NCBI GenBank assembly: GCA_019058275.1
Contig: JAHLVW010000093.1
Coordinates: 1 to 45,146 of the forward strand
Length of the DNA: 45,146 nucleotides
Direction of reading: 5' to 3'
Source of the DNA: Candidatus Heimdallarchaeota archaeon
Lineage (GTDB): Archaea > Asgardarchaeota > Heimdallarchaeia > JABLTI01
Part shown: one piece after another, positions 2,017-3,815 of the stretch
How the letters are laid out: each line of letters starts with the position of its first letter
Position numbering within the stretch: the stretch's first letter is position 1
Made by a program: the position numbers and the translations under genes
The notes under the pieces: generated by a model
Databases searched by the model: none
Told to the model about the DNA's origin: nothing
Seen by the model: the letters and a program-made list of their open reading frames with translations, nothing else

Positions 2017-2796
2017 ATGGTGGAAAACTTGATCGTCTCTAGAAAATTCAAGCGAATAAAAATAACAGCAAATACACCCATCGCAAAACCAAGCAATGGG
2101 CAAGTGAGTAATGGAAAAATAAACAACTTATTGTTAATTGGTAATGGTTCTGAAGATGGAAAAGAAGGGAAAAGGTATCTTTTGAAAGGACTCAGAGGGT
2201 TACTTAACCACTCAATGATGGCACTAGCAAAGCAAAAAGGAATAGAAGTGTGTCACTCATCTGACAAGGTAGAAACGCAAAGCGGAGAAAAACTGATTGG
2301 AGAAGGATACCACCCTAATGGAGCATGTTATCCGGAAAAGGAGTGCATTAGACATCAATTAATGGGGTCAATAAAGAAGAAATCAGTGTTACGGTTTGAA
2401 ACAGTAGTGATCATTTCTGAAAAAAACAAGAATGGATCAATAACAGCTCAAAAAATGCACATTGCTACAGAAATACGAAATAGTCTTGTGCAAGGGTCAA
2501 AGAAAGCAATACAAGATTTTGGGGAGCGATATGTTGCTGGAAGATTCACACTAAAAATAGAATTACTTGAAGAAATATCTCAAGAGGAATTAGGATTCTT
2601 ATTACAAAGTATTCTCTATATACCTGAGCTTGGATTCGGTGGTGCTGTAAACAATGGTGCAGGAAAGATAAGCCTTGAAGAAGTAGCTTTGCAAGAAGTA
2701 GAACGAACAAGGATGATAAAAAAAGGAAAAGTTTTCGAAGAGGAAAATGAACGAAACCTTTGGAAAGAAATGGAGGAGGGAATGAGTACATGGTAA
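2017..2796 (+). CDS. Cas7/Csm3-group RAMP protein
   Basis: N-terminal strand IKITANTPI; LKGLRGLL (KGxxR-like helix); Cys/His cluster C..H...C....C preceding LMGS (CxxCxLFGS-like); C-terminal glycine loop LGFGGAVNNGAGKI. Confidence 0.8.
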   Translation: MVENLIVSRKFKRIKITANTPIAKPSNGQVSNGKINNLLLIGNGSEDGKEGKRYLLKGLRGLLNHSMMALAKQKGIEVCHSSDKVETQSGEKLIGEGYHPNGACYPEKECIRHQLMGSIKKKSVLRFETVVIISEKNKNGSITAQKMHIATEIRNSLVQGSKKAIQDFGERYVAGRFTLKIELLEEISQEELGFLLQSILYIPELGFGGAVNNGAGKISLEEVALQEVERTRMIKKGKVFEEENERNLWKEMEEGMSTW

Positions 2797-3815
2797 CAAA
2801 GAAGATCTTTACTCTCGAGGGAAAATTACTCTCACTAATAATTAATTCTTCACCTCTAATTAAGAAAGGGAAATGTTGGTGTAAAGTAGTTAGAAGTCTA
2901 TCATCAGAGAAGAAACCACTGAGAACTTATGTAGGGAAACTAACAAAAGGTGAACGAAAAGCACCAACAAAGCAACTAGCATACAGAGGATTCATAAGAG
3001 TCACAACAATAGACAGGGACAAAGAGAGAGGAAGAAAGAACATTATCAATTATCTCTCAAAAGATTATCTTGGCAAAAAGACAACTGAAGGATACGGAAA
3101 GGTTCAGTGGTTAAACTATAAAGAAAAAGAATACATGCAAGAAAAACAAGAACCTAAGAGAAAGAAACTAAAACTAAGGAAAGGGTTAGGACCGAATTAT
3201 CCTAAAGAATTACAAAGATTACTAATAGCATTAATGCTCCACGACTTTGTGAAAACAGAAAAACACCCAAGCAAGATATTCAAAGAAATAACCATTAAGA
3301 ACGAGGAAATAAGAGAAGCATGCCTAAATCACCACAATGGAGAAAAAAGTGAAAATTATTTACTACCAATAATAAAACACTATGATCAATTAGCAGCCTA
3401 CATCACAAGAAGAAAACCTTACAAAATGTTGACTAGATATGATTTCAATAATGGGAAAATAAATTTTAAGAAAGTTGTATATGAAATAGAAGAAAGACAA
3501 TATTCAGCTTTTAAACTTTACAACTACATCTATCACTCACTAGAATTGAAAAGAATTGTAGAATCAATGACTTATGGGTATAACAACCTTAGAAATCACT
3601 TGTTACTAATGGTTAATTTAGCAATAAATGACTACTATCAAGGAAAAATAATAATAGCAAAAGGGAAAATTGTCATTAGAAATAGCAATCAAAAGACTAA
3701 AAAATCAATCTCATCATCAGCAAACAGAAGCGGAGAAATACAAAAGAATAAAAAGACCCGCAAAAGTGCTAGAGATGCTGAGATGCATCTAATCCTTGAC
3801 CATGAACAAAGCTAA
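2790..3815 (+). CDS. Cas5-like RAMP fused to an HD nuclease domain (Cas10/Cas3-type HD)
   Basis: Gly loop YLGKKTTEGYGKV; then LMLHDFVK..H, NHH, YDQLAA HD motifs; ATG 2790 has a GGAGGAGG SD and overlaps the end of the upstream gene (stop 2794-2796). Confidence 0.72.
   Translation: MVTKKIFTLEGKLLSLIINSSPLIKKGKCWCKVVRSLSSEKKPLRTYVGKLTKGERKAPTKQLAYRGFIRVTTIDRDKERGRKNIINYLSKDYLGKKTTEGYGKVQWLNYKEKEYMQEKQEPKRKKLKLRKGLGPNYPKELQRLLIALMLHDFVKTEKHPSKIFKEITIKNEEIREACLNHHNGEKSENYLLPIIKHYDQLAAYITRRKPYKMLTRYDFNNGKINFKKVVYEIEERQYSAFKLYNYIYHSLELKRIVESMTYGYNNLRNHLLLMVNLAINDYYQGKIIIAKGKIVIRNSNQKTKKSISSSANRSGEIQKNKKTRKSARDAEMHLILDHEQS

Follow-up and report, generated by a model that had tools for sequence, protein, structure and literature searches.

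To our knowledge, no derivatives of class 1 CRISPR effectors are smaller than ARAMP and HRAMP, the array-less modules of RAMP proteins found in Asgard archaea and Haloarchaea, and we know of no member of either group that has been tested. ARAMP was reportedly catalogued by Makarova, Wolf, Shmakov, Liu, Li and Koonin in 2020 (CRISPR J 3:156), and HRAMP of Haloarchaea is said to have been described by Makarova et al. in 2019 (FEMS Microbiol Lett 366:fnz079). ARAMP has been characterized as a set of CRISPR derivatives present in many Asgard archaea that are distantly related to HRAMP and contain diverged Cas5 and Cas7 proteins and, mostly, a distinct Cas1 (PMC8730458); together, the two groups are viewed as array-less type III derivatives that typically include HNH or PD-(D/E)xK nucleases (PMC12669027). 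In the 2025 classification of CRISPR-Cas systems, interaction of such modules with CRISPR RNAs (crRNAs) is considered unclear; if they do interact, they would rank as new CRISPR-Cas types. Here, we describe a module of this kind in a genomic stretch of 45,146 nucleotides (hereinafter, the window) from Candidatus Heimdallarchaeota archaeon (assembly GCA_019058275.1, contig JAHLVW010000093.1, positions 1 to 45,146). The module includes two co-oriented genes, one encoding a Cas7-like protein and the other a fusion of a Cas5-like RAMP domain with an HD domain (Cas5-HD), and a conserved structured RNA element of about 190 nt at the 3' end of the second gene. On balance, we lean toward the interpretation that this pair is one copy of an ARAMP-type cassette, under this reading a reduced derivative of type III CRISPR-Cas, that assembles with the 3' RNA as a small ribonucleoprotein. 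The gene pair itself is, in our view, a member of a catalogued family rather than a new system; what may be new is the RNA element, which is also a candidate for the RNA partner of ARAMP systems.

Judged by gene content and by the descriptions of ARAMP in the two reviews (PMC8730458, PMC12669027), the cassette is likely a member of this group. The host is an Asgard archaeon, the diverged Cas7 and Cas5 homologs are nearest to those of type III, the locus lacks an array and a standard adaptation module, and distinct Cas1-like and PD-(D/E)xK genes are found in three homologous loci (L024, L052 and L057; C and L numbers denote contigs and loci, respectively) and in paralogous loci, in positions that lie beyond the contig start in the window. 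An earlier note on this DNA, based on the sequence alone, had pointed to the array-less RAMP modules of Asgard archaea, with which the gene content agrees as far as the review descriptions go, and had also proposed an undescribed system, a claim that we abandon given the match to the same descriptions. The passages of those texts that describe ARAMP do not mention a structured RNA, and Pfam, NCBIfam and PADLOC contain no ARAMP profile.

The first gene of the pair (2017..2796, plus strand) encodes a 259-aa Cas7-like RAMP protein with a Cys/His cluster, as indicated by a Pfam RAMPs match above the cut-off (28.1 versus 22.1 bits), an AlphaFold model and profile matches, including those to the PADLOC Csm3 models (E 6e-6). 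In the alignment of 35 homologs, C79, H80, H99, C104 and C110 are invariant, and so are G208, G214 and G216 of the G-rich loop, in agreement with the Csm3-like motifs that had been read from the single sequence. The AlphaFold model (mean predicted local distance difference test score, pLDDT, 85) matched 173 PDB chains at E<=0.001 in a Foldseek search, with type VII Cas7, type IV-A Csf2 and Csm3 at the top, so that the Cas7 fold expected from a structural check was recovered. Among solved proteins, the sequence profile retrieved type VII Cas7 (E 6e-6) and Csm3 (E 0.002). The start codon, ATG 2017, is not preceded by a Shine-Dalgarno (SD) sequence.

The second open reading frame (ORF) is listed from TTG 2760, but the likely start, judging from the local sequence, is ATG 2790, which sits in an ATGGTAA overlapping the stop of the Cas7-like ORF, 10 nt after GGAGGAGGG. 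With the second gene thus delimited (2790..3815, plus strand), the pair is indeed present as two overlapping, coupled ORFs, as previously claimed. According to the structural model and fold matches, its product consists of a Cas5-like RAMP domain (residues 1-~115) and a Cas10-type HD domain (residues ~138-298). The RAMP part contains the G-rich loop LGKKTTEGYGKV, in which L94, G95, G101, G103 and W107 are invariant, and the HD-type residues H151-D152, H159, H181-H182, D199 and H270 are invariant in 36 sequences. Because the Pfam HD match alone is weak (E 0.14), the assignment of the HD domain relies on these residues together with the fold match. The model has a pLDDT of 82, and residues 299-341, which score below 50, form a predicted disordered tail. 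In a VIA-align search against 48,161 chains, the top two matches were Csm1/Cas10 structures, 6ifk_A (Z 8.1) and 6mua_A (Z 7.9), which span residues 138-298 of Cas5-HD, 6mua_A being aligned over its residues 1-221, that is, its HD domain; residues 4-120 matched RAMP chains of Csm, I-A, IV-A and I-D complexes (Z 6-6.8), which, from the chain lengths, we infer to be the Cas5/Csm4 chains. All these Z values are moderate, including those near 8. Foldseek with the whole model produced weak RAMP matches only, and the Cas5-HD profile gave no meaningful match to PDB sequences. Taken with the conserved residues, the model thus points to a Cas10-type HD domain that has kept its putative metal-binding His and Asp residues, and the earlier description of the second gene as a short RAMP part followed by an HD domain holds. 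The Cas5-HD family is small, with 136 clusters among 1.84 billion representatives, and in the ten clusters that were looked up all named members are from Asgard archaea. The named homologs and loci come from metagenome-assembled genomes of Heimdallarchaeota, Asgard or Promethearchaeota, except for three labeled Zixibacteria or Bathyarchaeia, and the neighbors of the homologous loci include Snf7 and ubiquitin-system genes.

The two proteins are predicted to bind each other, and on the side of the fusion protein the predicted interface lies in the RAMP domain and involves the G-rich loop. The predicted complex scored 0.63, compared with 0.00 for the best of three controls; among solved complexes, 58 of 80 attained this mark, as did 2 of 110 mismatched pairs. 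The prediction runs had at least 81% of contacts in common, and the partner pLDDT was at least 76. Since solved Cas7-Cas5 complexes exist, this result may in part reflect likeness to them rather than binding.

The RNA element (3706..3896, plus strand) was delineated by its conservation: these ~190 nt are conserved among paralogs whose proteins are merely 40-55% identical, with a nucleotide identity of 0.81-0.85 in the element compared with 0.58 in the coding part of the Cas5-HD gene. The end of the Cas5-HD ORF within the element is variable. The ORFs of the closest homologs (312 aa) stop before the DAEMH motif, that of the window stops at 3815, and others run to a TAG about 50 nt later; the DNA of the element is kept in all of them, and the disordered tail of the protein, from residue 299 onward, overlaps it. 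For the proposed structure of 31 pairs, pairing bases occupy 87% of the cells in the alignment of 34 distinct sequences, whereas displacing the partners by 1-3 columns lowers this share to 32-41%; 19 of the 31 pairs have changed on both sides, and the alignment contains 102 double-change cells, compared with 35 in shuffled alignments, none of 500 of which reaches 102. The structure was derived from the same 34 sequences, which are related to each other, so these figures amount to strong support and not to a formal test. G-U pairs are frequent (23 of 34 sequences at one pair and 29 of 34 at another), which places the fold on the sense strand. The structure comprises a long 5' stem, invariant in its outer part (UCUCA/UGAGA, AUC/GAU) and covarying in the inner part and tip; a three-part 3' stem in which GCU-C-UC pairs with GA-G-GGC, capped by GAGG/CCUC and a conserved loop; a hairpin of 5-7 bp that differs in sequence in nearly every copy while its position is constant; and a terminal GGUGAU or GGAGA that resembles an SD sequence. 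Taken by itself, the window copy has a folding energy of -41.9 kcal/mol (z = -2.5) and scores 131 bits with R1, the covariance model built for the element. An alternative hairpin in the 3' domain, CCGAG-AAGG-CUCGG, was dropped in favor of the three-part stem because only 64% of its cells pair. Another small hairpin, GAUGC/GCAUC, pairs in 98% of the cells yet competes with the long 5' stem; both may form. No Rfam family matches the element.

Searches with R1 tie this RNA to the RAMP pair. The element follows all six RAMP pairs of this genome for which the 3' end is assembled, and two further copies lack adjacent RAMP genes: C11:57243, which has the highest R1 score (149 bits), retains upstream no more than a decayed trace of the tail of the HD gene and lies 18 nt before the gene for the small subunit of replication factor C (RFC), and C11:40886, which lies behind a 66-aa gene remnant. 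In addition, the element precedes rpoE in L058, with no RAMP genes nearby. Across the class, the RNA is found in 13 of 83 genomes, with 1-13 copies each, and 12 of these 13 also carry a Cas5-HD gene; it is nearly confined to the window's own family, in which 10 of the 11 other genomes carry it. A second, distant family contains tail-less Cas5-HD genes of about 290 aa that are 30-35% identical to those considered here, and there R1 gives no match. These genes are nevertheless followed by their own conserved structured RNA, located wholly past the stop codon, with compensatory changes in 10 of the 20 predicted pairs and with an AGAAGGC..GGA motif common to both kinds of RNA; the presence of a separate RNA in the same place indicates that the RNA travels with the module. 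R1 detected nothing beside the TnpB-like or NERD-domain neighbors of the LAGLIDADG-HTH genes discussed below, nor in the virus-borne pair of L020, nor in L022. Two loci (L057, 237-657, and L060, 4451-4869) contain two elements in tandem, in which a complete module with its own element stands directly before an older element that carries a fragment of the end of another Cas5-HD gene and is followed by a Snf7 gene; from the arrangement, it appears that one module replaced another by recombination near the element.

Under the interpretation that we favor, the Cas7-like and Cas5-HD proteins would assemble on an RNA from the same transcript into a small ribonucleoprotein, in which copies of the Cas7-like protein would line the RNA, the Cas5-like domain would cap it, and the HD domain would cut nucleic acid, most likely single-stranded DNA by analogy with Cas10. 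A broader proposition, to which we give somewhat less than an even chance, is that ARAMP effectors in general are ribonucleoproteins built on a dedicated non-CRISPR RNA that the 3' end of the Cas5-HD gene provides in cis and that the orphan copies provide to the same proteins in trans. Several observations weigh against these ideas. The RNA shows no clear variable single strand resembling a spacer; instead, the variation falls in hairpins that pair with themselves, as would suit a scaffold more than a programmable guide. It persists without adjacent RAMP genes, both at C11:57243 and in L058. Most copies end in the SD-like motif just before a co-oriented host gene, which could mean a role for the neighboring gene and not for the RAMP proteins. 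Finally, in the homolog alignment, the N-terminus of the Cas7-like protein shows no conserved acidic residue that would resemble the catalytic Asp of Csm3. The non-CRISPR guide postulated from the sequence alone therefore survives in part: a conserved RNA without likeness to the CRISPR repeats of this genome is present, but calling the system RNA-guided is still conjecture, there being no obvious spacer-like strand.

A role for the neighboring gene is the essence of an alternative that we consider unlikely, albeit worth weighing in some detail, namely, that the RNA acts in cis on the gene downstream of it (rpoE in the window), as a leader or a processing signal, and that the RAMP-HD proteins are a post-transcriptional regulator or processing enzyme. 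A co-oriented ORF begins shortly after the element in about two-thirds of the 35 elements, the element ends in the SD-like GGTGAT or GGAGA, and the genes downstream are housekeeping ones, including those for RpoE, Snf7, the RFC small subunit, a Zn-ribbon protein and an intron-containing tRNA. In three loci of the distant family (L070, L071 and L075), an ORF starting with MSKPFYVNYEQPEGL begins within ~100 nt after Cas5-HD and the RNA; judging by this N-terminal sequence, it looks like ribosomal protein L7Ae, another housekeeping gene. Even where RAMP genes are not adjacent, the element is kept, in front of rpoE in L058 and of the RFC gene on C11. However, the genes preceded by the RNA are unrelated, yet the RNA is always found behind a Cas5-HD gene or its remnant, which ties its movement to the module rather than to the host gene. 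With the orphans, decayed pieces of the 3' end of the HD gene are found, as would be expected of remnants, and one copy is followed by a tRNA gene, for which an SD sequence has no use. The impression that several elements are followed by tRNA genes was not upheld, ARAGORN having found none and Rfam a single intron-containing tRNA, directly after the element in L014 (C11:69336).

The RAMP pair is present in 7 copies in this genome (on C88, C89, C25, C82, C86, C11 and C105), which are 40-65% identical and in some cases contain frameshifts or stops. In the window, it is divergent from a two-gene operon on the minus strand, of which the first gene (1743..1928) encodes a 61-aa small DNA-binding protein of the AbrB/MazE fold (Pfam MazE_antitoxin, E 6e-12; NCBIfam AbrB domain) and the second (25..1668) a 547-aa LAGLIDADG-HTH protein (Pfam LAGLIDADG_3, E 4.8e-6; HTH_3, E 0.01). 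The very AT-rich interval between the two units, 1929..2016, reads as a putative divergent promoter region. The same divergent arrangement is seen upstream of 4 of the 7 pairs in the genome, in most of the 22 Heimdall-group loci and in metagenome loci, and in many loci the AbrB gene sits between the LAGLIDADG-HTH and Cas7-like genes. About 24 genes of the LAGLIDADG-HTH family are present in this genome, and their head-to-head partners are the RAMP pair (4), TnpB-like genes (~10, the commonest) and genes for a NERD-domain protein (4), with Cas1-like, HTH and PD-(D/E)xK genes recurring behind the LAGLIDADG-HTH copies. Beyond the LAGLIDADG-HTH gene, L024 and L052 contain PD-(D/E)xK and Cas1-like genes, joined in L052 by an HTH gene; all three are present in L057, away from rpoE; and Pfam Cas_Cas1 and PDDEXK_1 matches were obtained at the paralogous locus C48. 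In the latter locus (C48:25001-30358, L012), the LAGLIDADG-HTH paralog nearest to that of the window (50% identity) has as neighbors a 619-aa HTH-Cas1-like protein, an HTH protein and a PD-(D/E)xK nuclease, and faces a 724-aa NERD-domain protein instead of the RAMP pair. The module is accordingly not the self-contained two-protein system that had been envisaged but sits in a larger cassette, in which the divergent AbrB and LAGLIDADG-HTH genes probably control or accompany the RAMP pair.

The genomic context brings in another alternative, which we find still harder to credit: the cassette could be a selfish or mobile unit in which the RAMP-HD ribonucleoprotein serves spread or retention, by analogy with TnpB and its ωRNA in IS200/IS605 elements, with the DNA flanking the RNA scaffold providing the guide and the LAGLIDADG protein aiding mobility. 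That a LAGLIDADG-HTH gene can stand head-to-head with a RAMP pair, a TnpB-like gene or a NERD gene, with Cas1-like genes behind it, is what a mobile unit might look like, and the overlap of the RNA element with the 3' end of the nuclease ORF resembles that of ωRNA. The window contains a second LAGLIDADG-HTH paralog (36684-38138, minus strand) that is interrupted by an in-frame stop and is head-to-head with an 800-aa ORF (38322-40724, plus strand); weak OrfB_IS605, Cas12f TNB, OGG_N and HhH-GPD matches suggest that the latter encodes a TnpB-like protein fused to an OGG-type glycosylase, so that here, too, a LAGLIDADG-HTH copy would face a TnpB relative. The placement of a module before an older element in L057 and L060 and the many decayed fragments fit this alternative as well. 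The window copy, however, is syntenic before rpoE-spt4-DPCK-S24e-S27ae-Bud32 in six loci (L024, L046, L047, L051, L052 and L056) from several diverged genomes, and its rate of evolution is close to that of the housekeeping genes next to it, with identities of 73-79% for Cas5-HD, 80-91% for RpoE and 61-65% for Bud32, and paralogs that are no more than 40-65% identical argue against a recent burst. Terminal repeats or target duplications were not seen, though they were not searched for. The viral contigs of IMG/VR yielded neither a relative of the Cas7-like protein nor the RNA pattern; yet, a distant Cas7-like/Cas5-HD pair (47% and 39% identity, respectively) is encoded in L020 (8001-9516 of a 73-kb contig of GCA_027051165.1), with the portal, MuF, protease and capsid genes on one side and the large terminase gene on the other, in a region that resembles a tailed virus.

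As a further alternative, improbable in our estimate, the pair could have no RNA of its own and borrow crRNAs from the type I-B arrays of the same genome, the 3' element being unrelated to its function. The genome does encode a complete type I-B locus (C26:7497-16956, L013) with Cas6, Cas8b, Cas7b, Cas5b, Cas3, Cas4, Cas1b and Cas2, the array of which runs off the contig end, with the same repeat present on C68, and CRISPR arrays are found on at least 4 contigs. The only Cas6 identified is that of the C26 locus, no genome-wide Cas6 search having been made. On C25 (12945-13055, L017), a unit of a repeat, a spacer and a degenerate repeat lies at the contig end, ~560 nt past the LAGLIDADG gene that belongs to the RAMP copy on this contig, where it could be taken to favor borrowing; its repeat is that of the C4 array (C4:1-330), and the two contigs may join at this unit. 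On the other side, the window and the syntenic orthologs lack a CRISPR repeat, the element is unlike either repeat of the genome, and RNA and module are found together across genomes and in the distant family as well. There is no mini-array near the RAMP pair in the window, no repeat array on this contig or in the syntenic orthologs, and no standard Cas1 on this contig, the matches being confined to C26 and C76; Cas10 (Csm1 or Cmr2) has no match in the assembly, which is 92.8% complete, whereas control genomes were matched. The stated absence of cas1, cas10 and an array was therefore correct, at the level of the contig for Cas1 and the array and of the assembly for Cas10. Given the lack of Csm1/Cmr2 and a type I-B locus as the only full system, the RAMP pair is not derived from a standard type III system by fragmentation within this genome, one of the outcomes that the earlier note had named as refuting its proposal.

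The remaining alternative, that the conservation of 3706-3896 reflects a conserved C-terminal peptide plus an intergenic signal and no functional RNA, draws on the passage of the ORF through the element in most paralogs, where it encodes ISxSA, DAEMH, MSNADSE and KKRRLGT, and on the first helix, TCTCA/TGAGA, the invariance of which yields no covariation signal, but we regard it as very improbable because the tail is predicted to be disordered, the closest homologs stop before DAEMH with the DNA kept regardless, the window sequence is still conserved past the stop codon, orphan copies without the ORF reach the top model score of 149 bits, 19 pairs show changes on both sides and the RNA of the distant family lies wholly after the stop codon.

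Two further features of the window concern the limits of the module. On the left, the contig begins 24 nt beyond the end of the LAGLIDADG-HTH gene, so this flank is cut off and the assertion that both flanks are visible was mistaken. On the right, the module is followed by the host gene rpoE (Rpb7-like; 3904..4680, plus strand; Pfam SHS2_Rpb7-N and S1), which lies outside it. The rpoE ORF as listed starts at TTG 3796, within the RNA element. The orthologs begin with ATG TAT TAC, and the window has ATT TAC TAC at the corresponding place (3904), 8 nt after GGAGA; as the ATG of the orthologs aligns exactly with this ATT, rpoE probably starts here with an ATT codon, unless the start has been mutated.

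If the broader proposition on ARAMP effectors is correct, they would constitute a distinct kind of RNA-dependent system, one that dispenses with an array, Cas6 and adaptation, and the question on RNA use by such modules in the 2025 classification would be answered. If the RNA is the partner of the pair, the module would show how an effector complex can keep an RNA without an array, and the closest archaeal relatives of eukaryotes would provide a Cas7/Cas5-HD ribonucleoprotein of very small size. A covarying RNA tied to the Cas5-HD gene is a concrete candidate for the partner, with which RNA use by ARAMP becomes directly testable; should the RNA part of the interpretation fail, the gene pair would be an ordinary member of a catalogued family.

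Compared with the type III (Csm/Cmr) systems, the module shares the Csm3-like Cas7 fold, a Csm4-like Cas5 RAMP and an HD domain nearest to that of Cas10/Csm1, but the window locus lacks the palm/cyclase domains of Cas10, Cas11, Cas6 and an array, the HD domain resides on the Cas5-like protein, and no Csm3-type catalytic Asp is evident. Type VII provides the best match of the Cas7-like protein, both by sequence and by Foldseek, whereas the locus has neither the Cas14 beta-CASP nuclease nor an array, its nuclease domain being HD. HRAMP resembles the module as another array-less combination of Cas7 and Cas5 derivatives with added nucleases (PMC8730458), but differs in its host group, the named relatives of Cas5-HD being from Asgard archaea, and is set apart by description. 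Finally, with respect to the OMEGA systems (TnpB/IscB with ωRNA), the proteins of the window are RAMP and HD proteins and not RuvC nucleases, and the likeness is confined to the position of the RNA: as in OMEGA, a structured RNA overlaps the 3' end of a nuclease ORF, and, in the paralogous loci, it is TnpB-like genes that take the position of the RAMP pair relative to LAGLIDADG-HTH.

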